From the NCBI GenBank assembly GCA_035444565.1, contig DAOMOX010000002.1, positions 105,335 through 169,334 of the forward strand: a stretch of DNA of 64,000 bases, written 5' to 3'. The notes beneath the pieces were generated by a model. That model was given only the letters and a program-made list of their open reading frames with translations, was not told where the DNA came from and did not search any database. Origin of the DNA: Candidatus Dojkabacteria bacterium (GTDB lineage Bacteria; Patescibacteriota; Dojkabacteria; B142; OLB20). Positions 27,901-45,852 of this stretch are shown here, in pieces. The translations under genes were made by a program, and so were the position numbers. Position 1 is the first letter of the stretch; every line of letters starts with the position of its first letter.

Positions 27901-29431
27901 GACTTCTGTCTACACTTTTTTGAGGTGAAATAAATAATTGAATACCTTCTGCATCTTTAAAAAAACATTGTTTACTTTCAAAAACTGATAGCAATAAGGG
28001 ATCATCTGGCATCATTTTCTTTATTTCTTCCTTCAAATATATATAGTCCAAACCTAAAGACATGTACTTCGCAAAATATATGTACCATATTAATTCATAG
28101 ACAGACTTTAACTGCATAGCTTTATCAATTTCTTTTAAAATAATCTTTTTTATATCTTCCTTTAAAGGTTTATGGATTTTACGATATTTAATAAAAACCA
28201 ATTCAATAATCGACAAGATATGGCATAAGGCCTTTGGAGATTCACGTTTCAACATTATTAACAATGAGAATGTTTTTATAATCTCTTTATATTCCATCTC
28301 TTTACTCTTCTTTGTGAATTGTATTTTCAATCCGTACGAATCATTAATTAACTCGCATAAGAACTTTTCAATAATGCTAGTCCCTCTATACTTCTGATGA
28401 ATATCTAAAACTCTCAATAATGTCAATTCGAAAGTTTTAAAGGGGATGTATTTTTTGTGTTTAAGTGAATAATTATAATAATCTCTATCGTGTTTCCTAT
28501 ATAGCCCTTGAGGAAGTTTTTCAACGCTAGTCTTTTCCTCGTTGATAAGCAGATTAAATTCTTCTAATTCATCCCTTAAAGTTTTAATTATTAAATTTGC
28601 ATCATCGTCGTTCATACATAAAAATCTATAGTCGTCTTTAAATCTTGTTGCAATAAAGTCAACATTTTCATTTTTAAGTTTCAAAGATACCTGCGTGTCA
28701 ATCCTAGATAATATTATCTCAGCTATTAAATCGCTTAATGCTGATCCTATAGGTATACCGTTTGTCCTAAGTTCATTAGAAAGCATATAACATCTATCTA
28801 TTTTTGAACCAAATAGTTTCTGCTCCTTTATGTCGCGCAAGGATTGATCACGTCCATGAATTGCCCACCCAATGCTGTGAGTGTATATTGATTTGTAAAA
28901 ATTAGTAATATCTGACTTTATAATATAATTGTACTTGTATACTTCTGTTATTAAGTCCTTCTCAGCCATTTCAATCCACTCATATATAAGTCTACCTGAC
29001 CTTAGTTTCCCAACCACACCTTTGGTGGTCGTATCTAAAGGAATAGGAAAGCTATATGAGTAAACCCTTAAGTCTTTGTCAAACAATATCTTTTTTATCT
29101 CTTCCCAGTTCTGATAAAGATGAAAAACAATATTATGGTAGTATTTTGGATTTTGAATGGAGAACACCCGAGAGGCGATGTTACTTTTTGGGTAAGCAAC
29201 CTTTACCAATTTATCAGACTTATTAGAATTAAACGCATTCTTTTTAAGAATAAAATTGCTAATCGTGTAAGAAGGTGGCAACACATTCTGCTCAGGGTAA
29301 TATCCTTCATTTAAAAGCCAGAGTGCAATGTCCTCTTTAGGTATTAAATCTAAATACCTCTCTGTTTCTTTTTGATGTTCTATAATAAAGTTATTCAAAT
29401 AAACATTTTTTGCATCACCCCTTTCTTCCAC
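27866..29431 (-). CDS. Reverse transcriptase of Abi/defence-associated (UG-like) type, embedded between hsdS and hsdR
   Basis: RT motif A region KSDITNFYKSI, motif B NGIPIGSALSDLIAEIIL, motif C variant TRFKDDYRFL (FKDD instead of YxDD). Both ends overlap flanking hsd genes. Confidence 0.6.
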   Translation of the reverse strand: MEERGDAKNVYLNNFIIEHQKETERYLDLIPKEDIALWLLNEGYYPEQNVLPPSYTISNFILKKNAFNSNKSDKLVKVAYPKSNIASRVFSIQNPKYYHNIVFHLYQNWEEIKKILFDKDLRVYSYSFPIPLDTTTKGVVGKLRSGRLIYEWIEMAEKDLITEVYKYNYIIKSDITNFYKSIYTHSIGWAIHGRDQSLRDIKEQKLFGSKIDRCYMLSNELRTNGIPIGSALSDLIAEIILSRIDTQVSLKLKNENVDFIATRFKDDYRFLCMNDDDANLIIKTLRDELEEFNLLINEEKTSVEKLPQGLYRKHDRDYYNYSLKHKKYIPFKTFELTLLRVLDIHQKYRGTSIIEKFLCELINDSYGLKIQFTKKSKEMEYKEIIKTFSLLIMLKRESPKALCHILSIIELVFIKYRKIHKPLKEDIKKIILKEIDKAMQLKSVYELIWYIYFAKYMSLGLDYIYLKEEIKKMMPDDPLLLSVFESKQCFFKDAEGIQLFISPQKSVDRSLAERLSVFNKE

Positions 29432-30552
29432 TTCTCAGCCTGGGTAATGCGTTGGTTGGTTATATTAATTAGATCGTCAATTGACGATAGGAAGTCTGCG
29501 ATTTTCTGTTGTTCTGATAATGTAGGTTTACTAAATATCATTTTCGACAAGATAGAAAAGTGTCGCTTGTAGCCCTCTGGTTTTATTTGATTTGATTGTA
29601 GTAGGTAGAACAAAAACTTTAAATTATCTTCATTGCTTTTAGCCATCAATATTTTAGTTCCGTCTGCTCCGATAATGAAATCGAAATTGATATACTTTAA
29701 AATTGTAGTATGATCCCCAAAAACAATAACCGGAGTCGATTCAAATACCTTGTTTGAATTATTTGAATAACCGGCAATTAAGCTTTTTCCTTGATCAACT
29801 ACCTTATATTCTCCTGTAGCTATAATTTCAGAGCTTTTGATTTGGAAGTACTTAGGAGATGTACTAACTAATATTTCATTAAACCTCTTCTCCTCCCACT
29901 CCGGATAATCACTCCCATCCTCATCTTTAAACCTTATCTCCTGCGAAAAGATTTTCTGCATCATCCCTTTTTTGTATTTCTCCTGTGCTTCTTTTTGCTT
30001 TTTTAGATTCTCAATCCAGTCGTCTACGGAGGTGAGGAAGGAGGCGATTTTGCGTTGTTCTTCGGATTTCGGGAATTCGAATTTCAACGATCTTAAATCA
30101 TTTGTGTAGATTCTCGTGATAGTCGTTGAATTTAGTTTGTCCCATCTACAATTAGTTAGCAGAAGGAAAAGAAAATCATCATCAACAACTTCATTATCGT
30201 TATCGATCCAGACAATGTTAGAATCTTGATAATAACTATCACGACCATCGAATTGAACGCACTTACCGATCGTTCCACTACAAGTGATTAAAGTCTGTCC
30301 TTTTCTTGGAAAGTTATATTGTAATTTATAGTTCTTAAATAAATTTTTATTGATAAATGCATCAGCGACACTCCCTAAGGTGCCTATTTTATAGAAAGGT
30401 ACTTCTCCAACTTCCTTAGTTTGGTGGGCAAAGATTCTTTTGCACATTTTGACAGAACCTAAGTCTCCTAATTTTCTTTCCTCCCACTCACCAGAGAATT
30501 CGGGGAAGCGGAGGGTTGGGGTTAGAGTTGTTTTGGTATCAGGCCTATTCAT
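29395..30552 (-). CDS. hsdS: Type I restriction-modification specificity subunit
   Basis: N-terminal LRFPEFSGEWEERKLGDLG, two TRD halves, conserved ...SEEQRKIASFLTSVDDWIENL / LSEQQKIADFLSSIDDLI repeats. Confidence 0.8.
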   Translation of the reverse strand: MNRPDTKTTLTPTLRFPEFSGEWEERKLGDLGSVKMCKRIFAHQTKEVGEVPFYKIGTLGSVADAFINKNLFKNYKLQYNFPRKGQTLITCSGTIGKCVQFDGRDSYYQDSNIVWIDNDNEVVDDDFLFLLLTNCRWDKLNSTTITRIYTNDLRSLKFEFPKSEEQRKIASFLTSVDDWIENLKKQKEAQEKYKKGMMQKIFSQEIRFKDEDGSDYPEWEEKRFNEILVSTSPKYFQIKSSEIIATGEYKVVDQGKSLIAGYSNNSNKVFESTPVIVFGDHTTILKYINFDFIIGADGTKILMAKSNEDNLKFLFYLLQSNQIKPEGYKRHFSILSKMIFSKPTLSEQQKIADFLSSIDDLINITNQRITQAEKWKKGVMQKMFI

Positions 30553-30854
30553 CTATTGCAATATTTGTAAATTTCAAAAGCTAAGTTTAAGGCCGCTACT
30601 ATCACAGCTAGAAGTCCAACAAGAACTCCTGCTTTACTAATTTTATTAAGTGCTCTAGTTAACTTTTCAGAGGATTCATTTGCCTCTTTGATGTTTTTGT
30701 TTAGCTCTACAAGCACTCCACGCATCTTACCCAATTCTTCATTGACTCCACTCAATTTTTTCGTTAATCCAAGATAAGTAGGTATCTCTGAGAAATATAG
30801 AGTCATATTTTCAATTAATTTTTCAGTTTTGGGATCATTTATGTCTACCTTCAT
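30549..30854 (-). CDS. Small protein with C-terminal TM helix, inserted between abiEii and hsdS
   Basis: ORF; coiled-coil-like N-terminus plus VLVGLLAVIVAALNLAF helix; unknown function. Confidence 0.35.
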   Translation of the reverse strand: MKVDINDPKTEKLIENMTLYFSEIPTYLGLTKKLSGVNEELGKMRGVLVELNKNIKEANESSEKLTRALNKISKAGVLVGLLAVIVAALNLAFEIYKYCNR

Positions 30855-30861
30855 GAATACT

Positions 30862-32184
30862 TCATTTCAATAAATCATCAAATTCACAATTTAAAAGTGC
30901 TGATTTTGTCAGAACTATCTGTTCCGATCTATTTAATCTATCTGCTGTAAGACGTATAAGCCTTGTGGTCAATCTATCACCCACAACTTCTCTATTTGAT
31001 TTTGAAATATAATCCTCAATCTTTTTATGAAACAACGTTGCATATTGCTTTATCTTGTCACTCTTACCGGACTCAGTTATCTTTTCGACAACTTCTCGAG
31101 ATATATCAATTGTAATATCTCCATCCGCGAAACTTATCCAATAATCGCTAATATTAATTATAAACCAAACTGACTTTCCTTCTTCCGTCTTGTACTCATA
31201 TGCAAAAGTGTAATTATCAGTAAAGAATTCTGTTTTAATTTCTATCCTTTCAAGTTCTTTAATCCGGTGTATAGGATAGGACTGAACCAATTTTAAATAA
31301 CTCTCATGCCAGTTAGTCAGCCAATTAGTAATATAGTTATTATCAGTAAACAGCGGAATTAGATCCTGCTCAAGATTATCTACTTCCACTGTATTCATTT
31401 TTATAGTCAATTCATCAAACAGTTTCTGTAGATTAGAAGTGTTCACACCTTTGGCTTTTAAATAATCTAGATCAGGTATCGCCTTTTTATCCATATACCA
31501 GAGCAAGTCATATATATCCCTACCTTTTTCATTAAATGTTTTGCTCCCAATATTTCTCTCTCCTCTTAAAAAGATAGCTGCTATTTTACTTGCCATAAGA
31601 TTCGACATATTGTAAGTCTTGATTACAAACGATAACTGATCTCTACTTATCGGAATTTTTTCTGTTGTTGACTTTTCTGAATTGAATTGGTTCAAGTCAA
31701 TCTTTAGATGAATTTGGTCCGAAGCATGACCCAATCCTAGTTTTTCTCCAATATGGAAATTCAATCGGAGTCCACGAACACCACTAATTTTTACGGTCAT
31801 AAATGTCGAATCTGTTTTATACTGATTTGAAAAGTACGACTCAATTTCGGATTTCAGCTCTTCCAGAAAATCCTGTGTGACTTCGGTTTTAATTTCAAAA
31901 TCTAAATCTACCGACATTCGATTAAGTCCATGGCAGATACGTAAAGCTGAACCTCCATACATAACCCATTTACTGTATTCTGGATGATGGTATATGAAAT
32001 TTAGAACATAAAACTGTAATTCCTCTTTTAGCACATTCCTTTGTATCTCGACACTAACAGATTCAGATGCTTTTACTTCTTCTAGTTTTGTCTTTAGTTT
32101 TAATAATACTTGATTATTCATGTTCTTTATATTTCTCGACCATTGAATGAAACTGATCCTGCTCCTTCTTTTCCATTTCATCAA
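30862..32184 (-). CDS. abiEii: AbiEii/AbiGii-family nucleotidyltransferase toxin (type IV TA / abortive infection)
   Basis: MYGGSALRICHGLNRMSVDLDFE matches DUF1814 signature GGTAL..hg.R.S.DLD. Probable true start at internal Met about 21 codons downstream. Confidence 0.65.
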   Translation of the reverse strand: MMKWKRRSRISFIQWSRNIKNMNNQVLLKLKTKLEEVKASESVSVEIQRNVLKEELQFYVLNFIYHHPEYSKWVMYGGSALRICHGLNRMSVDLDFEIKTEVTQDFLEELKSEIESYFSNQYKTDSTFMTVKISGVRGLRLNFHIGEKLGLGHASDQIHLKIDLNQFNSEKSTTEKIPISRDQLSFVIKTYNMSNLMASKIAAIFLRGERNIGSKTFNEKGRDIYDLLWYMDKKAIPDLDYLKAKGVNTSNLQKLFDELTIKMNTVEVDNLEQDLIPLFTDNNYITNWLTNWHESYLKLVQSYPIHRIKELERIEIKTEFFTDNYTFAYEYKTEEGKSVWFIINISDYWISFADGDITIDISREVVEKITESGKSDKIKQYATLFHKKIEDYISKSNREVVGDRLTTRLIRLTADRLNRSEQIVLTKSALLNCEFDDLLK

Positions 32185-32752
32185 AATCGATACGTAGTTC
32201 TTCTAATAAATTACTTATATCTCTAACCTCAATTGATCGAAATCTATTTGTCCTAAAATACAGCAAGTCGAAAAGGGCTTTAGAGGGGGAGGCAATATAA
32301 AAATCAAATTTATTATCTGATTCAGAATCTCCTTTAACCAACAAATAATCAGAAAAGATCTTTTCATTGATAGACTTATAAAAGAATGTACCGATTTTTG
32401 TCTGATAATCTCTGGTTACCTTTTGTGTTACAGAGGTAATAGCACCGATTTCCTCAGTAGCTAGAGAGTAATATTGCAATGCCGTCCACGAGCTTATATA
32501 TGATGGTTTCCTCAACACGTTCGCCAAATAGTACAAATACGTTACATCATTTTTATTTTTCTCATAGAAATCCCTAGAAACGTACAATTCTCTTCTTAGC
32601 TGGATAATATCTTTGCTTTTTATATACCTACTAATATAAGTATCTATAGTCACATCTTCTAAAGCATACTGCTCAGCTATTTGCACCAAAACAGCCTTAG
32701 TAAAATAAGGTAACGGTTTCAAGTTTTCGATTAGATTTTTCTTGCTTTTCAT
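32114..32752 (-). CDS. abiEi: AbiEi-family antitoxin/transcriptional regulator
   Basis: Size, position directly upstream of AbiEii and ...YISSWTALQYYSL... AbiEi-like segment. Confidence 0.5.
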   Translation of the reverse strand: MKSKKNLIENLKPLPYFTKAVLVQIAEQYALEDVTIDTYISRYIKSKDIIQLRRELYVSRDFYEKNKNDVTYLYYLANVLRKPSYISSWTALQYYSLATEEIGAITSVTQKVTRDYQTKIGTFFYKSINEKIFSDYLLVKGDSESDNKFDFYIASPSKALFDLLYFRTNRFRSIEVRDISNLLEELRIDFDEMEKKEQDQFHSMVEKYKEHE

Positions 32753-32806
32753 ATATATGACACTATTGTATCAGATATAAAACATAGATTCAATACACAA
32801 ACATAT

Positions 32807-34384
32807 TTAAAATGGACTCTCAATCCCTAATTCTTTAGTAAATACTTCAATTTTCTTTTTTAAATTCTCTTCTTCACCTGCCAATTCTTTCGCTTCTTTC
32901 GCCACAGCTTCGATATCTATTTCTGGCTCTTCATCGAATGTATCGACGTATCTTGGGATATTTAGATTAAATTCATTTTCTTCGATCTCTTTAAGTGTCG
33001 CTTTGTGTGAATATTTCTCTATTTCTTTTCTGTCTTTGTATGTTTCAAATATTTTGGATATATTCTCATCGGTTAGTTTGTTTTGATTTTTACCTTTTTC
33101 GAACTCTTTCGAAGCATCGATAAACAAAATATCATCGTCTTCTTTTCTGCATTTTTTGAATACCAAAACTGTTGCTGGAATAGATGTCCCGTAGAACAGA
33201 TTTGCTGGAAGACCGATTACTGCATCGAGATAATTCTGTTTCTCTATGATATATTTCCGAATCTGACCTTCTGCTCCAGATCTGAATAACGCTCCATGTG
33301 GAAGGACAACTGCCATCGTTCCATTGTCAGCCAGATGATAGAGCATGTGAGTGACAAATGCATAGTCAGCTGCACCTTTTGGTGCTAGACGACCGTATTG
33401 AGAAAATCTTTCATCATTCGCCAGTACAGGATCTGTATCACTTTTCCATTTAGCTGAAAAGGGCGGATTTGCCACCACCGCCTCTGCTTGCAAATCTTGA
33501 TGCATGTCATCCATAAGAGTGTCCCCCTGCCTGATGCTAAACTTATCAAAGTGAAGTCCATGTAAAATCATATTCATCCTAGCCAAGTTGTATGTTGTGG
33601 GATTGAGCTCTTGACCAAGATAACTTGTAACATTTGTGAAATCTCCGACACGCAAAAGCAGTGAGCCAGAACCACATGTTGGATCATAAACCGATTTAAG
33701 CCTGGTTTTACCTTCTGAAACAATTTGAGCCAATAACCTCGAAACCTGCGCTGGCGTGTAGAATTCTCCGCCTTTCTTTCCTGCACCGGAAGCAAATTCA
33801 CCTATCAAATATTCATATGCATCACCTAAAAGATCACTTTTCGAGTCTTCAATTTTAAAATCAATCCCTGCCAAAGCAGTTAATACTTCTACTATCACCT
33901 CGTTTTTCTTGTTTTCAGACTTACCAAGCTTTGATGAAGATAAATCCACATCATCAAACAATCCTTTGAAATCATCTTCGCTGGCTGTTCCCATTGAGGT
34001 TTGCTCTATTTTATTCAGAACATTTTTCAAATCTTCAAGTATGAACTTGTCCACTCCATTAATTTCACCATTTCCAGCTTTGACTAAATATGAAAACAAC
34101 TCTCTAGGCTTCAAGAAGAATCCAAGATATTCAGTTGTAGCTTTTTGCACAGCTTCTAGGATCTTTTCACCTTCTTGTGTTTCTTCATCAATTTCGTCAA
34201 ACTTGTACTTTTCGCCCTTTAAAAGTTCCTCATCAACATATGCAGACAGTTTCTCCGAAAGATATTTGTAGAAAATAAAGCCAAGAATGTAATTTTTGTA
34301 TTCATCGGCATTCATTTTTCCGCGGAGGATGTTTGCTACTGACCAGAGTTGCTTCTCGAGGAGTTGCTTGTGTTCATCAGCCAT
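32807..34384 (-). CDS. hsdM: Type I restriction-modification N6-adenine DNA methyltransferase subunit
   Basis: DPTCGSGSLLL (motif I) and VANPPFSAKW (motif IV NPPF). Confidence 0.85.
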   Translation of the reverse strand: MADEHKQLLEKQLWSVANILRGKMNADEYKNYILGFIFYKYLSEKLSAYVDEELLKGEKYKFDEIDEETQEGEKILEAVQKATTEYLGFFLKPRELFSYLVKAGNGEINGVDKFILEDLKNVLNKIEQTSMGTASEDDFKGLFDDVDLSSSKLGKSENKKNEVIVEVLTALAGIDFKIEDSKSDLLGDAYEYLIGEFASGAGKKGGEFYTPAQVSRLLAQIVSEGKTRLKSVYDPTCGSGSLLLRVGDFTNVTSYLGQELNPTTYNLARMNMILHGLHFDKFSIRQGDTLMDDMHQDLQAEAVVANPPFSAKWKSDTDPVLANDERFSQYGRLAPKGAADYAFVTHMLYHLADNGTMAVVLPHGALFRSGAEGQIRKYIIEKQNYLDAVIGLPANLFYGTSIPATVLVFKKCRKEDDDILFIDASKEFEKGKNQNKLTDENISKIFETYKDRKEIEKYSHKATLKEIEENEFNLNIPRYVDTFDEEPEIDIEAVAKEAKELAGEEENLKKKIEVFTKELGIESPF

Positions 34385-34499: not shown

Positions 34500-35543
34500 T
34501 TAAGATGCTATAAAATTATCATTAACAGTATCTATCAACAAAACTATCTGATTTGCCATATCTTTTATAACTATATCTTCAGTAACATCAAGTTTTGGAA
34601 ATATAGGAAAATAAATCCGATCTTTCTGAATTATTTTTGTATCAATAAGTCTTTCAGTTTTATGGCAACTTTCTATAAGTTGAGGTGTCGTGGCCCAGTT
34701 CTTGCTATCTTGGAAACCTATCCAAAAAGGCGTATCCAAATACTTAGACCAAAGATCCATACTGAAATATAGTGTTAGTGCAAGCTTTTCATAATACCCA
34801 AACCTGACGTAACCATCTCTTTGAGGTGTCGCTCGCAATTTCTCTGTCATAAATTTACCATTATTCCTTAGCTCTTCGACAAGGTTATCAATTAAATCAC
34901 AGTATGACATTAATCTTCTGGGATACTTAGGGGACAAATCATCACTTTGTATTGGAAGGAAAGAGTTATCATCAATAACTTTACAAAAACCGATTAATTG
35001 ATCAATGTCTGATACTAAGCTTGTTGAACCTTCCTGTACTAAGTTGCTCTTAATAATAGCTAGGATTTCATCCCACGTTTTTATTAGAATATATTTATTT
35101 TCAGGCAATTCAATTAACCTATCATTTGCACTTTTCTCTGGTATTTCAATTTTTACAACCCTATTTTTGATTTCTGAATACAAAGATCGACTTCTCAGTG
35201 TTGGGCAAATAAATAAAAGTACGGATGACTCGCCAATTCTTTTCAGATACTCTAGCGGTTGATTCTCAGTCAATGATGCCCAAAACTTAGCTTCGATGAT
35301 TAATCTTTCATTTTCATCCGTGGTTGTTACTCCAGATATATCCGGACGTTCTAAATTTTCCCCGATTGATTGGGCAATATATTTTAAATCTGGAAGATTA
35401 ATCCCGGTATCGTTTGAGATTACATTTTGTAGCGCATCTCTAGCACCTTTTGATTTATTCAAAATATAAGATAATCCGGTTGATGCAATATCTTCCTGTG
35501 ATCCTCTGATACGTGAATAAAATTGTCCTAGTAGTGATTCCAT
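34500..35543 (-). CDS. Hypothetical protein with possible PD-(D/E)xK-like signature (PDISGV...ERLIIEAKFW)
   Basis: ORF directly upstream of hsdM on same strand; D...E-A-K spacing only. Confidence 0.3.
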   Translation of the reverse strand: MESLLGQFYSRIRGSQEDIASTGLSYILNKSKGARDALQNVISNDTGINLPDLKYIAQSIGENLERPDISGVTTTDENERLIIEAKFWASLTENQPLEYLKRIGESSVLLFICPTLRSRSLYSEIKNRVVKIEIPEKSANDRLIELPENKYILIKTWDEILAIIKSNLVQEGSTSLVSDIDQLIGFCKVIDDNSFLPIQSDDLSPKYPRRLMSYCDLIDNLVEELRNNGKFMTEKLRATPQRDGYVRFGYYEKLALTLYFSMDLWSKYLDTPFWIGFQDSKNWATTPQLIESCHKTERLIDTKIIQKDRIYFPIFPKLDVTEDIVIKDMANQIVLLIDTVNDNFIAS

Positions 35544-35653
35544 GAATGTGTTTGATAATAATTATTAAGTAAAACTCACAGTTCTTTTATCATTTAATTC
35601 CTCAATTCCTAAATTTCTCAATCTTTACATTTTATTTCCTCATTCCTCAATCT

Positions 35654-36385
35654 CTAAATTCCTAAATCCCTCAATTTCCCTTGATACCCACACCACTCAC
35701 ACCCCTCCCTATACCCCGGAATCTCCTCCCCCATCAAACAATCCTTAATCTCTCTCAACTTCCCCTCAATCCAGCTGTCGTCTCCGGTGTATGGAATTAC
35801 GGAGATTTTGAATTCTAGTTTTGCATCGAAGGCTTGTTTGTCTTTGATGCCATTGCAATAAACAAAGTAACCCGTATTCGATACTTCAAAACCATTTCTT
35901 CGTAGTAACCATTGATAGATTTCCATTTGTCTCTTGTATGACATTTGCCAGTCTGCATCGATATTTACCTCCTCTTTTTTTGAAGTTGATTTGTAGTCCA
36001 CTACTATTAATTCTCCTTTTGGATTCACCCAAACATCATCAACTGCTCCTGCCACCAGAAGATTGGTTTCTTCGTGTAGGTATTGAACACCTTGGAAATT
36101 TTCTCTCCAGATGTCGATATCTTTGTGAGTGAAAGGAATTGCATCAATTCCATATGTGGTCATCAGTGGATGAGGGTCACCCTTGATACGATGGGTATCG
36201 AATTCTTGCTTCAATAAGTGGTCAACCGCAGAATTCAAACTAAACGGAGGACCTGAGGGCTGCTTTAATCCAAGTCTTCTATCCAGATAAAAACAATGCG
36301 GACAATTAATGAAGAATTCTATTCCCGATCTGCTGATTTTGTAAGCTTCGTCTTTGAGTGGATCAAACTGCCCTCGATAAGCCAT
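35654..36385 (-). CDS. Cas4-like / RecB-family PD-(D/E)xK exonuclease with Fe-S cysteines (stand-alone, no CRISPR nearby)
   Basis: N-terminal CPHC, LLVAGAVDDVWV (motif II), LIVVDYKST (motif III DYK), QMEIYQWLL (QxxxY), C-terminal C..GCEWCGY cysteine cluster. Confidence 0.55.
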   Translation of the reverse strand: MAYRGQFDPLKDEAYKISRSGIEFFINCPHCFYLDRRLGLKQPSGPPFSLNSAVDHLLKQEFDTHRIKGDPHPLMTTYGIDAIPFTHKDIDIWRENFQGVQYLHEETNLLVAGAVDDVWVNPKGELIVVDYKSTSKKEEVNIDADWQMSYKRQMEIYQWLLRRNGFEVSNTGYFVYCNGIKDKQAFDAKLEFKISVIPYTGDDSWIEGKLREIKDCLMGEEIPGYREGCEWCGYQGKLRDLGI

Positions 36386-36472
36386 ATTTGTGGTTTCTAG
36401 GTTGAAGTTGATTATACTATTATTAACTATTCAAAGAAAGTAATCACCAGTAAGAATTTTGGTGATTGAGAC

Positions 36473-37192
36473 TTATACCTTAAAGTAATCCATCTTCTGA
36501 GTATTTTTACACGTAGGGAAGTTTGTACATCCCCAGAATATCCCATATTTTCCTTCAACAATCTTCATCCTGCTGTCGCATTTGTTACAGAACTTGACTG
36601 AATCCCTATTAATTAATGGTCTGAGAGGAATTTCTACATTATATTTTTTTATTATACTCACTAGTTCATAGCCATTTATCAATCTAATAGGTCTTTCACT
36701 TGCGAAACGCTTTGCATCTAGCGTGAAAATATTAGTAGTTACAAAATATGCATTGGCATTATTCAGTTTATCTACTGTGGCACCATAAAAATCTCTCATA
36801 TCACTAAGAGTTACAACTCGGTTTATGTACTTTTTACATTGTATATAGTGAGTTTTTTCCCCTTTTTTTACAATTATATCTATTCCTCCATCCCTCAGGC
36901 CACCAATCACATTTGTCGTGTAGCCTAATTGTTGAAATATTTTTCCAACAAACTCTTCAAATTCATGTGGTGAGAGATTTTTAATTGCCGAGAGCATTTC
37001 TTTATCACTTTTCCAAGTGAATTCTTTCCTCTCCGGAGTGCTTTGCTGTTGGGTGGGGATAGTGGGTAAAGACGAACTTACAGGTGGTGCTTTCTCATCT
37101 TTAGTAGCACTCAGAGCTTTGATAAGGAAAACTACGAGAGAAAGAATTACTACTAGATAGATACTACAAAACAGAAAAAAGAAATTCTCCAA
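36473..37192 (-). CDS. Mrr-cat-type restriction endonuclease domain protein with N-terminal TM and C-terminal topoisomerase-type C4 zinc finger
   Basis: FEEFVGKIFQQLGYTTNVIGGLRDGGIDIIVKK...HYIQCKKY (Mrr_cat D..D.K), C-terminal CNKCDSRM...CTNFPTC. Confidence 0.55.
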   Translation of the reverse strand: MENFFFLFCSIYLVVILSLVVFLIKALSATKDEKAPPVSSSLPTIPTQQQSTPERKEFTWKSDKEMLSAIKNLSPHEFEEFVGKIFQQLGYTTNVIGGLRDGGIDIIVKKGEKTHYIQCKKYINRVVTLSDMRDFYGATVDKLNNANAYFVTTNIFTLDAKRFASERPIRLINGYELVSIIKKYNVEIPLRPLINRDSVKFCNKCDSRMKIVEGKYGIFWGCTNFPTCKNTQKMDYFKV

Positions 37193-37310
37193 TGCTATGT
37201 AAAATATTTATAAATACATAGCTACATAGTACAAAAATTTATTCAAGATTTCCAAAATCGATATTTCCGAAATAAAGTATTAAAAATGGGGGTGTTACCA
37301 GTTCTGAGAA

Positions 37311-37865
37311 TTATTGATAGTTTTTGTTACTTGAAATTATTGATTTAACATCTTTCGCTACATCAAATACAAATTCCAAGTCTTGATCGTTATAGAGTTT
37401 ATCAATTCTTTTAAGATTTCCAATATGAAGCCTATTTCTAAAAGATCTTACTCTATCCAGGTTACTTTCTAGTTCTGGTTCAATTATGTGATATTTAGAA
37501 CAATAGTCTATAACTCTGTTAAAGTCCAATTTATTGATATCGATAGGCATTTGTTCACGTATTAATCCAACTACTTGTTTGTTCGGACTTATCTTGTAAA
37601 GCATTCTAATGTCAGTGTATTTCCAAGAATCTTTTGTTTTAATATTTCCAGAATTTACCTCATATTTAACTATGATCATCAATAGAGCCTCTATAATTGA
37701 AGCGGTGTGAATAATTATTGTTTTCCTAAAACTACTCAATGTAATAAGAGAATCGTCAAAATCCTTCTTCAACAATAAAGTAGAAAGTACAAGTATATGA
37801 TTGAAAGTAATATTGAGGTTAGTGCGTAGAATCGGATCTTTAATTTCAGGGAAATTATTTATCAC
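37311..37865 (-). CDS. Hypothetical protein (weak HEPN-like R-x6-H: RSFRNRLH). GTG start in ORF track
   Basis: ORF at head of the minus-strand defence gene string. Confidence 0.3.
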   Translation of the reverse strand: MINNFPEIKDPILRTNLNITFNHILVLSTLLLKKDFDDSLITLSSFRKTIIIHTASIIEALLMIIVKYEVNSGNIKTKDSWKYTDIRMLYKISPNKQVVGLIREQMPIDINKLDFNRVIDYCSKYHIIEPELESNLDRVRSFRNRLHIGNLKRIDKLYNDQDLEFVFDVAKDVKSIISSNKNYQ

Positions 37866-38034
37866 CTTCGACCATCATATCCACTAATGAAGGGAATCCG
37901 CCCTCTCTAAGGTAATCACCTAGCTTTGTGTTTGGGTCGACGGATAATTCGATACCATAAAGCTCCTTTAACTCGGAAACTTTAGTATTTCTGGTAAGAA
38001 TTATCTGGTTTTTGTCTTTTTTAACTTTTCTCAT
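37855..38034 (-). CDS. Unannotated 59-aa ORF overlapping start of 37311-37865 gene (possible small partner/antitoxin-like)
   Basis: ATG at complement 38032-38034, TAA at complement 37855-37857; MRKVKKDKNQIILTRNTKVSELKELYGIELSVDPNTKLGDYLREGGFPSLVDMMVEGDK. Below the 60-aa threshold of the supplied track. Confidence 0.25.
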   Translation of the reverse strand: MRKVKKDKNQIILTRNTKVSELKELYGIELSVDPNTKLGDYLREGGFPSLVDMMVEGDK

Positions 38035-38295
38035 AAGAAACTATACCACAAATTTAAATATGAACATTGTGCCGTAAGGCAAATATGAGTAACTTTCTAG
38101 AGAAATCCCCGTCTCGAATCAAGTTTCGTTTAAATTCCAAAAAAATCATCATTAAGATTAATATCAAAGATAAGTCATTAAAAAAATTTAATCAAAATTG
38201 CAGAAGACACTCTTCCAAATCTCCGTAACACACATACGGAGCGTATTATGGTATAATTGTATATGATTTTAAATCAATTTCGAACTAAATATTAA

Positions 38296-41200
38296 ATGGG
38301 GGACTTAGGCTTAGATAATAATCGCTGGTTGATTCCGAGATTGGACTATTTACCTGACGTTAATCCTTGGGATATGTTTAATCGAGAACGATTGCGCGTA
38401 TTTGGGGAGATAGTAGATAACTATTTTGTTCCACAATGCAATTTTCTTAGTTATGAAGATACAGAACAAGATTTAGATTATTTTGTTCAGAAATATCCAT
38501 TTTTATTAGATGGACAAGGAAGCCTTCCTCAATTGCATAGGAAAGTTTACGAACTTCAATCAAATGGGGTTTCTACACTAACAATTTTTGATATTTGTAT
38601 AGAATTTGACTGTCTTGATAAACTCGGCCAACAATTTCTAGAAAATCCACCACCTCATTTAGAATTAGGACTTAAAATTACAAACTCTGCAGAATATAAT
38701 TTGATACAACAAGCAGTAACAAGAAATCACCTACCTCAAGTTTTAAATTTTCTAAATTCTCTAATCCCCTTAAAAGAACCTGAAGGTGAAGAATACTTAA
38801 AACATCCAACACTCTGGTTAGAGCTACTAGGGAGTTCTTCAATGTACCGACCTAATGCAGTTATTCTGGCTGCTGAAAAAGGCAGTCTAAATCATCTAAC
38901 TGAAACAATCAAGTATTTGTCTACTATAGATGAAAACAGAACATTAAATTTATTCGAGAATGAATTTCAATTAGGTATGGGCGAATCAAATTTCTTACAT
39001 CATCTATTAAAAGGAAAACAATTGCATTCATCATTGATTGAGATGATTCAACAAGTTTATTCATCAAGCACTTATCGTCTTAAATCATTGCTTAATCAAA
39101 AAGACTTCTATGGGAATATTCCGACTCATGCCATATTGGGTCCTTACAGAGATTTTATTATACCATTAATAGATTTCGCTTATACGGAAGATAATGAAGG
39201 TTTAAAGTTGTTGCTAGAAAAATTTGGAATCTCAAATTTAATTAGGACCAGTGCCACGAGTAATTTACTACCAGGTCTAATAACTAAAACTTATAGTGAT
39301 GCAACTGAAATACTCTTAGAATACGTAACACCAGTCATCCATGACATTCTTAGAAATATTTCAATCACAGGAAACTTGGAGTCATTTGAAATATTGAAAC
39401 TAGCTTATTCATCTCATCCGGGAGAATTATTTAAAACATTTATTGAATCAGAGTCAAATGCTGAACTACTAATACATGCTGCTCAAAATCATCATGTAGC
39501 ATCTGCTAGGGAATACATAAAATACATATTTAAAGACCATCCAGATTTATTGCAAGAATATTTACATCGACCAGATTCAAATACTATCGCACAAGAAAAT
39601 GATACATACCAAATCGCATTTTTAAGATACCTTTCCTCTCCTCATGATTTCATTCCAGCAATGGAAATTTTGGAACAAGCATATTTAACTAATGATCAAA
39701 ACGGCGAGAACTCTCAAAAATTATCTGGGAAGAATATAATTCAACCTTTTTTAAAAGTAGCTTCGACTAATCCTGAAATCTTAACTTGTGAAGTAATTTC
39801 TAGGTTCAAATTGATATTAGATAGAAGTAATTACACTTATCTAATTAGTAATCCAGATGTAAGAGAAGTATTAGTAAATTATGAAATAGAACATATAGTA
39901 CCACGTTCAAATACATTTTTTCGAATGGGTATAGATGAACAATATTCAGGAGATATGGCACGTATTGCAGTAGAAGCATATACAGAATATTCTTATTTTA
40001 AACAAGTACTTGAATCCTACCCTACTATACTATCAAAAGTATTAGGGACTGAGCTTATAGTTAATCTTGGACCTACGGAAAACGAGGCAAGAAGTGCCTA
40101 TGATAGAGAAATTTTAGACATAAGTAAGAAATTTATATCGTTATTAGAAAATCATTTTAATATCAGAGGAAACTTTTACATTATTGACGAATCTGAACAA
40201 GATCAAGACATTCAGCCAACTGAGGATCTAATATCTCGCCTATTTCCGACTAGAAAGCATCAATTTTTTGTAAACGAAAAATTAATCACAGACATTTTCG
40301 AACAACCTCCTTTAACAAGGCTTGGTTTTCTTGCAAGAAGAGCATTATTGGGGGGAGACTTCCCTGATAGGCCAGAGGACAAAGCTTTGAGAAGTATTTT
40401 CCCAGAGGATTTTACAATGTTTTACAAGCCTGATAACGACTACTTGCCTATACCAATACTCCCAGAACACTGGGCAGAACTTGCTTTAAAGTTATCTCAT
40501 TGTACTCCTAATTTAGAAAATGGATCTTTCCTAGATAGCATACAAGTTATTTCTGGTATTGTAGACTCATTAAAGGAAATTGCTAAATTATCGGAAATAC
40601 CACTGACCGACAGGTTATTAACTGACATTGAAAGTTTTGCAAAGTTGTTAGGTAGATATTATATCAATACAGTTTATGCAACTGATAATACAAAGATTAA
40701 ATCCAAGGAAGAGGTAGATAAACACCCAATTATTATAAAAATCTTAGATCCAGATGATAACGAAGATTTGGCAGATTTTATAAGATATCGATTTGCAGGG
40801 GATCCCATACAAGATCTCAAACTTACGGCTCAATACAAACATTTGCCATCCGAAATTGGTTTGATGGCTTACGATCCACATACAACCGTAGCCCTCTTGT
40901 ATGAAAATCGTTCGGATGTAACTATTTCACTTGAAGAAGAGCATCCAATGGATAATGATTTTATGGATGAAATTTCAAAAGAAGAATTAAGGTATAACAT
41001 TGAACGATTAGCTTTTGGTTATGTAACAATAACTGAGGGTACATTTAGAACCTCAGAAGAGGAAGATGCTCGTCGTATAATCATCCTAGGAGACGCCGAG
41101 ATGGGATCTTACCGCAGCAATGCTAATGTTGCAGAAATCTTATTAACTCTCGCACGAACTCTAAAACAAAAAACAGGTCTGGATGTGATAATTTCTACCG

Positions 41201-41409
41201 CGTATCACAAAATTTTTGTAAACGAAAGTACTGCAGAAAGCTCAGATATATCAATACCGCCTACAACCTCTAAAATCAAGCGCAATTCAGAAACAAAAGT
41301 AACGGATAATACAGGGATACCGCTTTCAGAAGAAGTGTATTTACATCATCAAGAGGATAAAACGAAGGCACCAACGGCAGCAGAAAATTACTGGTTTATG
41401 ATTAGCTGA
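38296..41409 (+). CDS. Large orphan protein (1037 aa) with ankyrin-like N-terminal repeats and a DUF1524-like EHIVPRS motif
   Basis: Repeated ...NAVILAAEKGSLNHL..., ...NIPTHAILGPYRDFIIPLIDF... (ankyrin-like helices). YEIEHIVPRSNTF resembles the DHHIVPRSWG His-Me finger motif of the GmrSD gene at 57814-60090. Confidence 0.4.
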   Translation: MGDLGLDNNRWLIPRLDYLPDVNPWDMFNRERLRVFGEIVDNYFVPQCNFLSYEDTEQDLDYFVQKYPFLLDGQGSLPQLHRKVYELQSNGVSTLTIFDICIEFDCLDKLGQQFLENPPPHLELGLKITNSAEYNLIQQAVTRNHLPQVLNFLNSLIPLKEPEGEEYLKHPTLWLELLGSSSMYRPNAVILAAEKGSLNHLTETIKYLSTIDENRTLNLFENEFQLGMGESNFLHHLLKGKQLHSSLIEMIQQVYSSSTYRLKSLLNQKDFYGNIPTHAILGPYRDFIIPLIDFAYTEDNEGLKLLLEKFGISNLIRTSATSNLLPGLITKTYSDATEILLEYVTPVIHDILRNISITGNLESFEILKLAYSSHPGELFKTFIESESNAELLIHAAQNHHVASAREYIKYIFKDHPDLLQEYLHRPDSNTIAQENDTYQIAFLRYLSSPHDFIPAMEILEQAYLTNDQNGENSQKLSGKNIIQPFLKVASTNPEILTCEVISRFKLILDRSNYTYLISNPDVREVLVNYEIEHIVPRSNTFFRMGIDEQYSGDMARIAVEAYTEYSYFKQVLESYPTILSKVLGTELIVNLGPTENEARSAYDREILDISKKFISLLENHFNIRGNFYIIDESEQDQDIQPTEDLISRLFPTRKHQFFVNEKLITDIFEQPPLTRLGFLARRALLGGDFPDRPEDKALRSIFPEDFTMFYKPDNDYLPIPILPEHWAELALKLSHCTPNLENGSFLDSIQVISGIVDSLKEIAKLSEIPLTDRLLTDIESFAKLLGRYYINTVYATDNTKIKSKEEVDKHPIIIKILDPDDNEDLADFIRYRFAGDPIQDLKLTAQYKHLPSEIGLMAYDPHTTVALLYENRSDVTISLEEEHPMDNDFMDEISKEELRYNIERLAFGYVTITEGTFRTSEEEDARRIIILGDAEMGSYRSNANVAEILLTLARTLKQKTGLDVIISTAYHKIFVNESTAESSDISIPPTTSKIKRNSETKVTDNTGIPLSEEVYLHHQEDKTKAPTAAENYWFMIS

Positions 41410-41721
41410 GATTAATTATAGAATCAAAGCTTTTCTGATATAAGAATCGTTCTATAAATAATTCTTTCATTATCAAGAACTCCCCATTTCAATAAAATAT
41501 TGTTTCCGAATTCAGCATTAATCTAATTAAGAAATATCTCTCCCCCTATGTTTTTAGTCTGAATCAGAGGAAAATCTCAATTCTGGAATAAAAATGGAAA
41601 ATATCATGATTTCCCAAATCAGTTTGAAAAATAACACGTAAGTTAATATAATGTAATTAATCACGAGGGAGAAACGACTGTACTTTTTCGTAAAGTATGC
41701 TACGCCTCCCACTTTTTATAC

Positions 41722-42321: not shown

Positions 42322-42492
42322 CCCTGACTTGATCCCGCCTCCGTTACATGGCGGGACGGATCTCTAGGTTATGATTTACCTAAACAAATGTTTGAGAGAG
42401 ATCCCCTCCCGTCATGTTTTAAGACGGGATCGAGGGGAAATATATGAGAGAGATTCCCTCCCGTCATGTTTTTAGACGGGATCGAGGGGAAA
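42322..42492. repeat. Composite repeat element, copy 2 (unit A plus two hairpin B units), upstream of RND transporter
   Basis: ccctgacttgatcccgcctccgttacatggcgggacggatctctaggtt ... 2x gagagatcccctcccgtcatgttttaagacgggatcgaggggaaa. Confidence 0.8.
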
Positions 42493-42585
42493 ATTTGACG
42501 TACTGAATCCTGAATATATCTTTCTGAATTCTCTCTTTTCGCCCATGATATAATTCCTGCTAGCTTAATATTAGTTAATAACACA

Positions 42586-45246
42586 ATGAATAACAACTTG
42601 GTTACGAGATTTAGCGAAATTTTCTTCAAACGAAGTAGACTTACAATTCTACTTATAATTTCAGTACTTTTGCTTGGATTCTATTCATATTCAACTCTTC
42701 TGAAGCGAGAAGGTTTTCCAGTAATCAACTTACCAATTATTGTTGTAAATACCCCTTATCTTTCAGGAGATCCAGCAAAGACCGAAGCTGATATAACTGG
42801 GAAGATTTCCTCGAAAATCACAGAAATTGAAGGAGTAAAGGAAATCCAAACCACTTCCACATCAAATCTATCTTCAATTTTTGTCTCGCTTGATGATGGT
42901 ATCACGACTGCAGATGATGCGAAGGACAAGATTGAAAATGAAATATCAAAACTTAATCTAGAATCAGAGCCTATAATAATAGTTCCGAATGCAGCTCTCG
43001 TGGATGGTCAAAATGATCTTGTTTTTTCAATTTATTCAAAAGACTTAACAATCGAACAACTTCAGCAAAAAGCATTGTTGATTGAAACAGAACTTGAGAA
43101 AAGCGATTTGATAAAAGAGGTTAATATTAAAAATCAAATCACTACAGAGTTCGACTTTGCTACCCAGCAAGAGGTCACAGCAACACGTTCATATGCGAGA
43201 TCACTTGTGAAAAATGATGGCGAACTTGAGGCTTATGACTCACTTGATATTGGTGTTGTAAAGAAAAATACAGATGTAGGAACTATTGAGCTATCCGATG
43301 AAGTGAAAGCAATTGTCGAGAGAAGTTTAGAGAAAGAAGAGTTAGATGGAATTAGCGCACTTTATAGCGCAGATCCAGCAACATATCTCAGAGCGCAGAT
43401 ATCTTCCCTAGAATCAAATGCATTAGCTGCGATGATTACAATTTTTGTCATCTTACTGTTGTTTATAAACCTTCGTTCAGCAATTTTATTAGCATTATTC
43501 ATCCCTCTCACACTCGCATCAGTGTTTTTCATCTTCTCAATCTTCGGCTATACATTAAATACAATTTCATTGTTTGCTTTGATTTTAGTACTTGGGCTTT
43601 TCGTAGATGATGGGACAATCATCGTAGAGGCAATCGACTACTACAAAAGGCAAGGCCAGAAAGGTTTCCAAGCTGTCAGAAGTGCAATTAACGATATTGG
43701 AATCGCCGATATCTCAGGAACACTTACAACAGTTTTAGTGTTTCTTCCACTTGTTTTTGTTACTGGAATTTTGGGAGATTTTATAAAAATTCTTCCAATG
43801 ACAGTGATAATCGCTCTATTAGTTTCTCTATTTATCGCCCTAACAATCCTTCCATTTCTCTCTTCGTTCTTAATCAAAGACTTAGACAACAAGAAGAAAA
43901 GCAAAGAGAACATCCTATCAATCATAGTCAACTTCGTTCCAAAACTTATGATTAATTTCTCTGAAAAAAGTGGAAGAACTGTAAAACAAACATTGGAATC
44001 AAGATATTACCGCTTAGGCTTATTCGCCGTCTCATTAATATTAATTGGTATTGGGGGATACTATGCTAGCCAATTAAAGTTTGCATTCTTCGCACCTGCA
44101 AAAGACTCTGATTTGATTACAATTTCAGTTACGAATAAAATTCCTACTGACATTACGACAGCGAAATCTGCCACAACAGAACTCGAAAAATTAGTTGTTG
44201 ATAATTTCTCGGAAGAAATTCAAGAAATTGCCTACCTCGATGCAAATCAAAGAGGTGCTGAGATTAGAGTTTCTTTGAGTCCAATCACTGAGAGAGACAT
44301 TACTGCTGGGGATATTGTTCGAGAAATTAATGAATTAACCAAAGACAATGAAAGCTTAGTAGTAAGCGCTTCTATCGTTTCTGCTGGACCTCCCGTCGCT
44401 CAGTTTCCATTTGCAATGCAACTTTTCTCCGAAAATCAAACTGTCTTAGAAACAAAGTCTGCAGAGATTGCCGAATTCATAAAATCAACAGAACTTGATA
44501 AAGATGTTCAAGTTGAAGATGTAAAGGTTGATTACACCAAAGAAATCCGAAGAAAAGACAATGAAAGATTTGCCGAAATTAGAGTAAAGTTCAATGATAA
44601 ATACGATAGTGCCACATTATTGGAATTACAAGAAATTATAGAAGGTGAATACAACGGTGAGGACAATTCCGAATTCTCTCTTGGATTTGATTTCGGACAA
44701 GAGAGTGAAAATGCAAACTCCTTTAATTCTGTAGTATTTGCAGGATTAATAGCACTAATTGTTATGTATATTTTATTAGTATTGCAGTTCAACTCATTCA
44801 CACAGCCACTACTGATTTTGGTAGCAATACCATTTAGTTTTCCAATTTTATTCCCTGGACTGTTCTACACAGATAATCCAATGAGTTTCTTCGTTGTGAT
44901 TGGTCTTACCGGTCTGATTGGAATCGTAGTTAATAACACTATCATATTGATAGAATATGCCAACGCACAAAGGAAGTCTGGAAAATCCATAATTGACTCA
45001 ATAGCAGAATCAGTGAGATTGAGGACAAGACCGATTTTCACTACATCACTCACAACCATAGCTGGATTACTTCCTTTGGCACTCACTGAACCATTCTGGG
45101 AGCCATTGGCTTTCACTATCATCTTTGGATTAATCTCCAGTGTGATGATGATTGTCATCGCCTTCCCGGTTTACTACTTCTTTGTGGAATCCGCACGAGA
45201 TTTGTTCTACAAGAATGTTAAGAAGTTTAAGATGAGGGGGTTGTAA
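42586..45246 (+). CDS. RND-superfamily transporter (MMPL/AcrB-like; two TM bundles with large extracytoplasmic loops)
   Basis: 886 aa with hydrophobic clusters at about 270-430 and 720-880 and a duplicated domain layout. Confidence 0.5.
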   Translation: MNNNLVTRFSEIFFKRSRLTILLIISVLLLGFYSYSTLLKREGFPVINLPIIVVNTPYLSGDPAKTEADITGKISSKITEIEGVKEIQTTSTSNLSSIFVSLDDGITTADDAKDKIENEISKLNLESEPIIIVPNAALVDGQNDLVFSIYSKDLTIEQLQQKALLIETELEKSDLIKEVNIKNQITTEFDFATQQEVTATRSYARSLVKNDGELEAYDSLDIGVVKKNTDVGTIELSDEVKAIVERSLEKEELDGISALYSADPATYLRAQISSLESNALAAMITIFVILLLFINLRSAILLALFIPLTLASVFFIFSIFGYTLNTISLFALILVLGLFVDDGTIIVEAIDYYKRQGQKGFQAVRSAINDIGIADISGTLTTVLVFLPLVFVTGILGDFIKILPMTVIIALLVSLFIALTILPFLSSFLIKDLDNKKKSKENILSIIVNFVPKLMINFSEKSGRTVKQTLESRYYRLGLFAVSLILIGIGGYYASQLKFAFFAPAKDSDLITISVTNKIPTDITTAKSATTELEKLVVDNFSEEIQEIAYLDANQRGAEIRVSLSPITERDITAGDIVREINELTKDNESLVVSASIVSAGPPVAQFPFAMQLFSENQTVLETKSAEIAEFIKSTELDKDVQVEDVKVDYTKEIRRKDNERFAEIRVKFNDKYDSATLLELQEIIEGEYNGEDNSEFSLGFDFGQESENANSFNSVVFAGLIALIVMYILLVLQFNSFTQPLLILVAIPFSFPILFPGLFYTDNPMSFFVVIGLTGLIGIVVNNTIILIEYANAQRKSGKSIIDSIAESVRLRTRPIFTTSLTTIAGLLPLALTEPFWEPLAFTIIFGLISSVMMIVIAFPVYYFFVESARDLFYKNVKKFKMRGL

Positions 45247-45302
45247 AAAGTGTGAAATTAAAAGACAGACTCCTCTTCAAAAGAAATCAAGTGCATCAAC
45301 TT

Positions 45303-45618: not shown

Positions 45619-45852
45619 TTGAATCTACACATGATGAATCACAATTTCACCATCACAACTTGGCGAGAGGACGACCTCTTTGTGGCCCAATGTTTAGACG
45701 TAGATGTTTCAAGTTTCGGCGCAACCCAAAACGAAGCTTTAGAAAATATAAAAGAAGCTATTGAACTGTATTTGGAAGACGCTAATGATATAGACATCCC
45801 TGAAATTCAAACTCCAGCTATTACACAGACGAAAATTAGCCTAGATGCCTAA
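45619..45852 (+). CDS. hicB: HicB-family antitoxin (UPF0150)
   Basis: FTITTWREDDLFVAQCLDVDVSSFGATQNEALENIKEAIELYLED matches HicB N-terminal fold signature. Overlaps hicA start. Confidence 0.6.
   Translation: MNLHMMNHNFTITTWREDDLFVAQCLDVDVSSFGATQNEALENIKEAIELYLEDANDIDIPEIQTPAITQTKISLDA

Follow-up and report, generated by a model that had tools for sequence, protein, structure and literature searches.

Do the five genes that lie immediately upstream of hsdM in a Type I restriction-modification (R-M) operon of a Dojkabacteria genome form one defence system, or are they a set of unrelated neighbours? The genes were examined in a 64-kb stretch of DNA, called the window below, from Candidatus Dojkabacteria, a lineage within the candidate phyla radiation (CPR; Patescibacteria). 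They encode, in order, a 59-aa small protein, a 184-aa protein with a predicted HEPN fold, a 239-aa membrane-anchored nuclease with an Mrr catalytic domain and a zinc ribbon (Mrr-Zn), a 243-aa Cas4-like nuclease and a 347-aa protein with a PD-(D/E)XK nuclease domain. A preliminary description, made from the DNA sequence alone, had suggested that they may constitute a new multi-gene defence module or an accessory module of the R-M system. Our analysis points instead, with a probability of roughly 0.75, to a defence island built around the Type I R-M operon, of which the five genes form the variable upstream flank, composed of four independently distributed units and not of one system.

The five open reading frames (ORFs), all on the minus strand (Table 1), were found with the GTG start and the overlap that had been reported for them: the 59-aa and 184-aa ORFs share 11 nt, and the 184-aa, 239-aa, 243-aa and 347-aa genes and hsdM then follow one another at distances of 118, 87, 110 and 115 nt. 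Since each ORF has conserved homologues, all five are real genes. GenBank gives the products as 'hypothetical protein', 'PD-(D/E)XK nuclease family protein' or 'restriction endonuclease'; the 59-aa ORF, earlier called unannotated, is in fact listed as a hypothetical protein. Searches against Pfam, NCBIfam, PADLOC and PHROGs gave no match for the 347-aa, 184-aa and 59-aa proteins or for the product of a neighbouring 1037-aa orphan ORF, and single-sequence PDB searches returned chance matches only. An Rfam search detected only tRNAs.

The comparison with the closest relative, locus L001, bears directly on the question. L001 is 86–96% identical to the window at the DNA level over the flanks and the operon (blastn), and 88–97% at the protein level. 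There an NYN gene and a 111-aa gene precede the Cas4-like gene (95% identity at the protein level) and the 347-aa gene (88%); hsdM, AbiEi, AbiEii and hsdS come next, and two different cargo genes stand between hsdS and hsdR. The relative thus keeps the Cas4-like gene together with the 347-aa gene and hsdM, and both the Mrr-Zn gene and the HEPN pair are missing from it. The missing genes belong to a 5.2-kb segment of the window (1037-aa orphan ORF, small ORF, HEPN gene and Mrr-Zn gene) that has no counterpart in L001, where 644 bp stand in its place. It follows from this comparison that the five-gene block is partly shared backbone and partly strain-specific insertion, with the boundary of the two inside it. 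No direct repeats flanking the segment were found.

The distribution of each family in other genomes gives the same picture. In the 347-aa family, 54 unrelated genome loci are without a Cas4-like, Mrr or HEPN homologue nearby. The Cas4-like gene occurs in twelve further independent contexts, none with a 347-aa or Mrr-Zn homologue; the HEPN pair is present in just one of these. The HEPN pair itself was found in ~40 distinct contexts; in the window it lies three genes upstream of hsdM, and many other loci have no R-M system. Conserved co-occurrence, as would be expected of a single multi-gene system, was therefore observed only for the small ORF and the HEPN gene. The preliminary description had named independent occurrence of each gene in unrelated contexts, with no co-occurrence, as the outcome that would speak against a common module, and this is largely what was found; its placing of the genes in a string of defence genes proved correct, the neighbourhood being a defence island.

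Table 1. Coordinates of the features discussed, as positions in the 64-kb window
Feature	Position	Strand	Basis or remark
Small partner gene, 59 aa	37855..38034	-	ORF call; homologues conserved
HEPN-fold protein, 184 aa, GTG start	37311..37865	-	predicted fold, invariant motif
Membrane-anchored Mrr_cat nuclease with C-terminal topoisomerase-type zinc ribbon, 239 aa	36473..37192	-	Pfam
Solo Cas4-like RecB-family nuclease, 243 aa, PF12705 clade of CPR bacteria	35654..36385	-	
Two-domain protein, 347 aa, N-terminal PD-(D/E)XK nuclease domain	34500..35543	-	
Type I R-M operon, anchor of the island	25057..34384	-	domain and PADLOC matches
hsdM	32807..34384		
AbiEi/AbiEii pair	30862..32752	-	
101-aa ORF	30549..30854		
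Reverse transcriptase, 521 aa	27866..29431	-	RVT_1 3.4e-10
Strain-specific 5.2-kb segment	36423..41622	.	blastn against L001 and L001 gene table
Perfect 8-bp hairpin directly after the Mrr-Zn stop codon	36442..36467	-	inside the strain-specific segment
1037-aa orphan ORF	38296..41409	+	
REP-like repeats	41537..41574 and 42386..42489		
NYN-domain ORF, 105 aa	41722..42039	-	
Second strain-specific indel	42408..45300		no L001 counterpart
Transporter-like gene, 886 aa	42586..45246	+	
Overlapping 77-aa and 68-aa ORFs	45619..46051	+	match DUF7387 and HicA_toxin genes of L001

The one unit of two genes is the small-ORF/HEPN cassette. A word-indexed search found few homologues of the 184-aa protein (27). 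In the family alignment R140, R143, N144 and H147 are invariant, as is the helix RKTIIIHTASIIEALL; the HEPN motif is defined as R-x4-6-H, usually with a polar residue following the R, and R140-x6-H147, invariant across 25 sequences, conforms to it (R143 and H147 are spaced by x3 only). Structure prediction returned the four-helix up-and-down bundle of HEPN domains with a beta-hairpin insert of ~35 residues and nothing more, and some family members have weak Pfam matches to DUF4145 and HepT. Remote homology and structure prediction had been proposed as a check for two of the proteins, and they have assigned the 184-aa protein, with the R-x6-H motif already pointed out in it, to the HEPN fold and the 347-aa protein to the PD-(D/E)XK nucleases. 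On the predicted fold, then, the 184-aa protein is a HEPN domain protein, and it is predicted to be the RNase and toxin of the cassette. That the N-terminal 62 residues are conserved speaks for the GTG start. In public annotations of identical or almost identical DNA (HRP51319.1 and HRO65074.1) the gene begins at an internal TTG or ATG, which yields 123 or 122 aa and drops two conserved N-terminal helices. That these shorter entries are truncations or pseudogenes was considered and rejected; they are alternative starts at residues 62/63 of the same sequence.

In ~38 of 42 metagenome loci, as in every context inspected first, the gene immediately upstream of the HEPN gene encodes a homologue of the 59-aa protein, with a spacing between an 11-nt overlap (−11) and ~+30 nt and a partner size of 57–65 aa. 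The toxin/antitoxin-like geometry noted in the window thus recurs across the family, and the small ORF and the HEPN gene are an obligate pair, inherited and moved together. The small protein consists of an R/K-rich tail followed by a conserved core, IxTIEKKYGVDLGVRSDMKLGNYLKKKGYPSLSxML, that is helix-loop-helix-like in the relatives and in our reading of the sequence resembles a SAP or helix-extension-helix nucleic-acid-binding motif. Its isoelectric point is ~10 in all relatives and 8.0 in the window copy, a divergent member. No match to it was found in Pfam, NCBIfam, PADLOC or the PDB, and a PDB search with the family profile gave chance matches only. Mean identity is 59% for the small protein and 45% for the HEPN protein, the former being higher in 91% of locus pairs.

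This cassette is an undescribed two-gene variant of the HEPN toxin/abortive-infection theme. In toxin-antitoxin (TA) systems of the HEPN-MNT type (HepT/MntA, e.g. SO_3166/SO_3165) the partner is a minimal nucleotidyltransferase (MNT) of 100–140 aa, whereas here it is a basic protein of ~59 aa without a nucleotidyltransferase motif; no MNT antitoxin is encoded next to the HEPN gene, and the upstream partner matches no family. The cassette differs further in the beta-hairpin insert of its HEPN protein and in a partner that is more conserved than the toxin. With the anticodon nuclease PrrC, whose gene is embedded in the EcoprrI Type I operon, the comparison is one of genomic position: in some relatives the HEPN gene lies inside an hsd operon, and in the window it is three genes upstream of hsdM. 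Unlike PrrC, the HEPN protein has no N-terminal ABC-ATPase regulatory domain, a separate small protein being present instead, and the cassette occurs also in places without an R-M system.

The contexts of the pair are diverse. In L102/103 and L107 its place is between hsdS and hsdR, in L101 directly before an hsdR whose product is 73% identical to that of the window, and in L108 after hsdS and an Abi_C gene; in L096 it follows an MmeI-type enzyme, in L099 it is beside RhuM and in L005 it is part of a GmrSD/OLD island. L101 and L108 differ in their upstream flanks but share, at 94% identity, a stretch of 726 bp with both genes and ~60 nt of upstream sequence, which indicates that the cassette is mobile. 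Altogether ~10 of the ~22 annotatable contexts are R-M or other defence loci. Many HEPN clades are linked to R-M systems, with PrrC as the paradigm (Anantharaman et al. 2013, PMC3710099), and the R-M and defence contexts of the pair fit this known linkage. In pattern-based scans of viral contigs no relatives of the HEPN family were detected.

Several observations weigh against our reading of the region. The five genes are on one strand with similar gaps (~90–118 nt), so that co-transcription is possible; a scan for promoters and terminators gave no excess over shuffled sequences and left the transcription units undefined, and the hairpin after the Mrr-Zn gene is possibly a terminator. A Cas4-like or other PD-(D/E)XK gene lies at most two genes downstream of the pair in the window, L005, L010 and L102, a proximity that is more than pure chance easily gives. 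The pair is also found among housekeeping genes: DnaJ and NusA genes in L083, M48 and NUDIX genes in L087, a class I (Trp/Tyr-type) tRNA synthetase gene in L089 and MurG in L100. Lastly, the basic character of the partner and its higher conservation relative to the toxin are not typical of type II antitoxins; typical antitoxins are labile and acidic.

How much do these points favour other explanations? If the four to five genes worked together, as one new defence module or as an accessory dedicated to the Type I R-M system, their common direction, their adjacency to one another and to hsdM and the presence of several nucleases would be accounted for, as would the HEPN pair adjoining a Cas4-like gene in L005 too. 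The set, however, is not conserved in L001, the Mrr and HEPN genes are inside the strain-specific segment and each family has many contexts without the others, and we regard a single module as very unlikely. A smaller system, made up of the small ORF, the HEPN gene and the Cas4-like/PD-(D/E)XK nuclease gene, with the Mrr gene inserted later, is suggested by the gene order in L005 (small ORF, HEPN gene and a PDDEXK_1 gene whose product is 55% identical to that of the window), in L010 (small ORF, HEPN gene, DUF2779 gene) and in L102 (PDDEXK_1 gene two genes downstream of the pair). Most of the readable downstream genes are nevertheless different ones (hsdR, NusA, NUDIX, tRNA synthetase, RhuM, Peptidase_C39), and the pair is missing from 13 of 15 Cas4-like contexts, which makes such a three-gene system improbable. 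The pair could, finally, be a plain selfish TA addiction cassette with no role in phage defence or R-M. Its antitoxin-first, overlapping layout, its mobility, the loci among housekeeping genes and the failure to match any PADLOC model are all in keeping with this; the proportion of defence contexts, which include the PrrC-like slot between hsdS and hsdR, and a partner so unlike labile acidic antitoxins are not, and we consider plain addiction a possible though somewhat doubtful explanation.

As part of a mosaic island, the cassette would work by the logic of PrrC and of TA systems. We predict that the HEPN protein acts as a metal-independent RNase through the invariant R...H site. Its small basic partner, encoded just upstream and translationally coupled to it, is expected to associate with the HEPN protein, probably with nucleic acid also, and would in this way restrain or direct the RNase. 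Release upon infection, or upon failure of a neighbouring R-M system, would then lead to cleavage of cellular RNA and a stop of growth. The data show that the five genes are real, what folds and motifs they encode, that the small ORF and the HEPN gene go together and that the units are independent; the biochemical activities of all units and their roles in defence are inferred.

The Cas4-like nuclease is the second subject of interest. It matches PF12705 (PDDEXK_1) with an E-value of 1.3e-12 (48.6 bits against a cut-off of 22) and remains below the cut-offs of the Cas4 families proper (TIGR00372, 30.2 bits against 65; PF01930, 19.4 against 22.7); the top PDB profile match, spanning the DxK and QxxxY motifs, is nevertheless the Cas4 protein SSO0001 (4ic1). 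The RecB nuclease motifs D116, D130-Y131-K132, Q153 and Y157 are invariant in 27 members, as are C28-x2-C31 ... C229-x2-C232. The earlier identification as a Cas4-like nuclease therefore stands as far as the DYK and QxxxY motifs are concerned. The cysteine cluster also noted consists of four invariant residues, arranged 2+2, with a C-x2-C at each end, and not 1+3 as in Cas4; the metal that they would bind may be an Fe-S cluster or Zn. Homologues number more than 8000, the best 120 being 60–78% identical, and carry source names such as Patescibacteria, Parcubacteria and Moranbacteria. Solo Cas4 or PF12705 nucleases of CPR genomes have been described (Hudaiberdiev et al. 2017, PMC5704561), and the protein belongs to this known clade, with which it shares the RecB-type motifs, the four conserved cysteines, a CPR host and the lack of nearby CRISPR-cas loci. 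Its independence of CRISPR, which had been noted for the window, extends to the relatives: there is no CRISPR array in the 64-kb window and no cas gene in any of 15 Cas4-like contexts. A near-identical copy on a JGI contig of 3166 bp (P0433) is 341 aa long and has a C-terminal extension of ~100 aa, for which read-through, fusion or an artefact of assembly may be responsible.

The 15 independent contexts, a small sample in which seven loci come from a viral-contig collection, reveal a striking pattern of position. At least 12 of the 15 are in a defence-gene neighbourhood, usually with the Cas4-like gene just downstream of genes for DNA-cleaving enzymes; the matches in the viral-contig collection likewise resemble defence islands and not phage genomes. 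Outside L116 and L117 it stands, on the same strand, behind genes of DNA-targeting defence: (i) hsdS, a 245-aa gene, hsdR and a 210-aa gene in L127; (ii) a Type IIG Eco57I-like enzyme, an OLD-like gene and a UvrD gene in L129, and the latter two types in L122; (iii) GmrSD in L125 and L005; (iv) a ResIII/TnsA-like nuclease-helicase, fused or split, in L119 and L126; (v) SMC-like ATPases in L120 and L124; (vi) SNF2 in L123; and (vii) the Mrr-Zn gene in the window. In L114 and L128 it is near RhuM, Fic or hsdR genes. The gap or overlap to the upstream gene is 0–4 nt in L119, L123, L126 and L127. In L122 and L129, which are CPR-like contigs, the genes directly before it form a Gabija-like pair (OLD-family AAA_15/TOPRIM and UvrD helicase).

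Two readings of this pattern were weighed: the Cas4-like gene is either a shared accessory of DNA-cleaving systems or the flank of an insertion hot spot. The accessory reading is favoured by the overlaps with non-homologous upstream genes and has a precedent in ACE1, an Argonaute-associated Cas4-family enzyme that boosts a DNA-cleaving defence (PMC12094033). Like ACE1, the gene is encoded beside DNA-cleaving immune genes; its partners are R-M, Gabija-like, GmrSD and Mrr systems, and that of ACE1 is Argonaute. We predict that the enzyme, a nuclease with a putative four-cysteine metal site, resects or degrades the DNA ends left by the adjacent DNA-cleaving enzymes. The hot-spot reading is favoured by the high conservation of the gene, which would be that of a vertically inherited housekeeping repair nuclease of CPR bacteria without a functional link to the defence islands that it flanks. 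The very large family and its identity across CPR lineages are core-gene-like, L116 and L117, near translation and cell-wall genes, have a housekeeping look, and published work on solo Cas4 found vertical inheritance and no arms-race signature (PMC5704561). The immediate contact with non-homologous defence genes upstream, however, suggests operon membership, the downstream flanks are not syntenic and the same types of upstream system recur in pairs in different lineages. The Cas4-like gene had initially been taken for a housekeeping core gene; its recurrent position behind defence genes led us to revise this, and we now hold the housekeeping explanation to be rather unlikely, if still credible.

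Taking the two leads together, one may tentatively imagine the Cas4-like protein as a promiscuous, co-transcribed 'finisher' of DNA ends and the HEPN cassette as a second, RNA-targeting layer in the same islands, although we would not rate this combination as probable. The finisher would be recruited by Type I and Type IIG R-M, Gabija-like OLD-UvrD, GmrSD, Mrr and SNF2/SMC-like systems, in host genomes assumed to be without RecBCD or AddAB, and the cassette, analogous to PrrC, would have a small nucleic-acid-binding partner of a new kind.

The remaining two units are single genes. The 239-aa protein matches Mrr_cat (PF04471) with 94.2 bits (cut-off 21; E-value 7.5e-27), Zn_ribbon_Top1 (2.6e-10) and the PADLOC models PDC-S02 (3.7e-18) and mREase_IV (9e-15); a D...QxK motif, D104...Q118-C-K120, can be read from its sequence, and its N-terminal hydrophobic segment has a Kyte-Doolittle score of 3.0. 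The combination of an N-terminal transmembrane helix, an Mrr catalytic domain and a zinc ribbon is thus confirmed, but it is not unusual as had been thought. The family has 14,286 cluster representatives at E <= 0.001 (exhaustive HMMER search), of the best 150 of which 114 have a C-terminal CxxC..CxxC ribbon and 88 of these also the N-terminal hydrophobic helix. Members annotated 'restriction endonuclease' are found on 328 plasmids. With Mrr, Type IV enzymes and PDC-S02 the protein shares the Mrr_cat domain with its D...QxK motif and the status of a solitary gene without a methyltransferase. It differs from E. coli Mrr, which has an N-terminal winged-helix DNA-binding domain: no match to Mrr_N was found, and there is a membrane helix at the N-terminus and a topoisomerase-type zinc ribbon at the C-terminus. 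It appears to be a common solitary membrane-anchored endonuclease with a putative DNA-binding zinc ribbon, probably Type IV-like.

The 347-aa protein consists of an N-terminal PD-(D/E)XK domain and a C-terminal alpha/beta domain of unknown function. Its family is large and strongly conserved (at least 433 matches; 43–51% identity in other phyla), with a nearly invariant N-terminus, MxSLLGQFYxRIKGSQEDIAS. Residues E17, D68, E84 and K86 are invariant, the last three within ERPD...EAKFW, so that the D...(D/E)xK triad is present on a restriction-endonuclease-like alpha/beta core. A Foldseek search of the model against the PDB gave nothing at E <= 0.001, the family-profile PDB search produced chance matches only and pattern-based scans of viral contigs detected no relatives. 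Compared with R.BspD6I, NgoMIV, EcoT38I and the FokI cleavage domain, the protein belongs to none of their sequence families and has no cognate methyltransferase; among proteins of the restriction-endonuclease fold it is set apart by the highly conserved N-terminal helix and the unassigned C-terminal domain. The 57 genome loci come from Bacteroidota, Clostridia, Zetaproteobacteria, Cloacimonadota, Moraniibacteriota and others. No Cas4-like, Mrr-Zn or HEPN homologue lies within 8 kb in any of them, and only three have a Type I gene near. The neighbours are otherwise random (149 Pfam families in 133 neighbours, none more than twice) except for one recurrent protein of ~105 aa with a WPHEYIV motif, whose gene abuts the start codon in 12 of 40 loci. 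The window, where no trace of this protein was found, differs in this respect from other phyla, in which the pairing is frequent. We predict that the 347-aa protein is a solitary PD-(D/E)XK endonuclease of a widespread uncharacterised family. The ~105-aa protein may be an immunity or specificity partner. Its motif, W(T/I)(Y/F)AKT...WPHEYIV...GY...FY...Y(F/Y), is kept across phyla without a Pfam match (loci L015, L017, L022, L023, L026-L028, L030, L031, L033, L034 and L060).

The R-M operon that anchors the island consists of hsdM, AbiEi, AbiEii, the 101-aa ORF, hsdS, a reverse transcriptase gene and hsdR. AbiEi and AbiEii, between hsdM and hsdS, and the coiled-coil or membrane-like 101-aa ORF after them are all conserved in L001. 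The slot between hsdS and hsdR is occupied by the reverse transcriptase gene in the window, by a 332-aa gene and a DUF2806 gene in L001 and by an Abi_C gene with the small-ORF/HEPN cassette in the related hsd operon of L101 and L108; with this variety of content the slot behaves as an exchangeable cargo site.

In and around the strain-specific segment several further features were seen. The 1037-aa orphan ORF, divergent from the small ORF, was found only in Dojkabacteria and has no match among PDB sequences either. The stretch upstream of the small ORF (38035..38100) contains a palindrome at 38049..38062. Near the edges of the segments in which the window departs from L001 there are palindromic GC-rich repeats that resemble repetitive extragenic palindromes (REP), CCCTCCCGTCATGTTTTAAGACGGGATCGAGGGG: two copies of 52 nt in tandem and a degenerate one. 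The NYN-domain ORF is shorter than in L001 (175 aa), with 89% identity over the shared part, a probable truncation at the edge of the insertion. The second strain-specific indel, beside the island, carries a gene for a multi-pass membrane transporter-like protein. The overlapping 77-aa and 68-aa ORFs, a few kb from the island, look like a HicAB-type TA pair.

CPR bacteria rarely carry CRISPR-Cas, and their resistance to phages is poorly known. The locus described here is a mosaic defence island of an ordinary kind that offers two leads of moderate novelty. What looked like one system of five genes is such a mosaic, so that to clone the block in its entirety as a single unit would mislead. The first lead is the small-protein/HEPN pair, a cassette new to Pfam, NCBIfam and PADLOC 2.0, with a highly conserved small basic protein as partner in place of an MNT, and found repeatedly in the PrrC-like slot of Type I R-M operons. 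The second is the Cas4-like nuclease that recurs behind unrelated DNA-cutting defence operons, its gene being the last of at least five different kinds of them. If the Cas4-like nuclease is indeed their shared accessory, this would explain the over-representation of solo Cas4 in small genomes that was left open in 2017.

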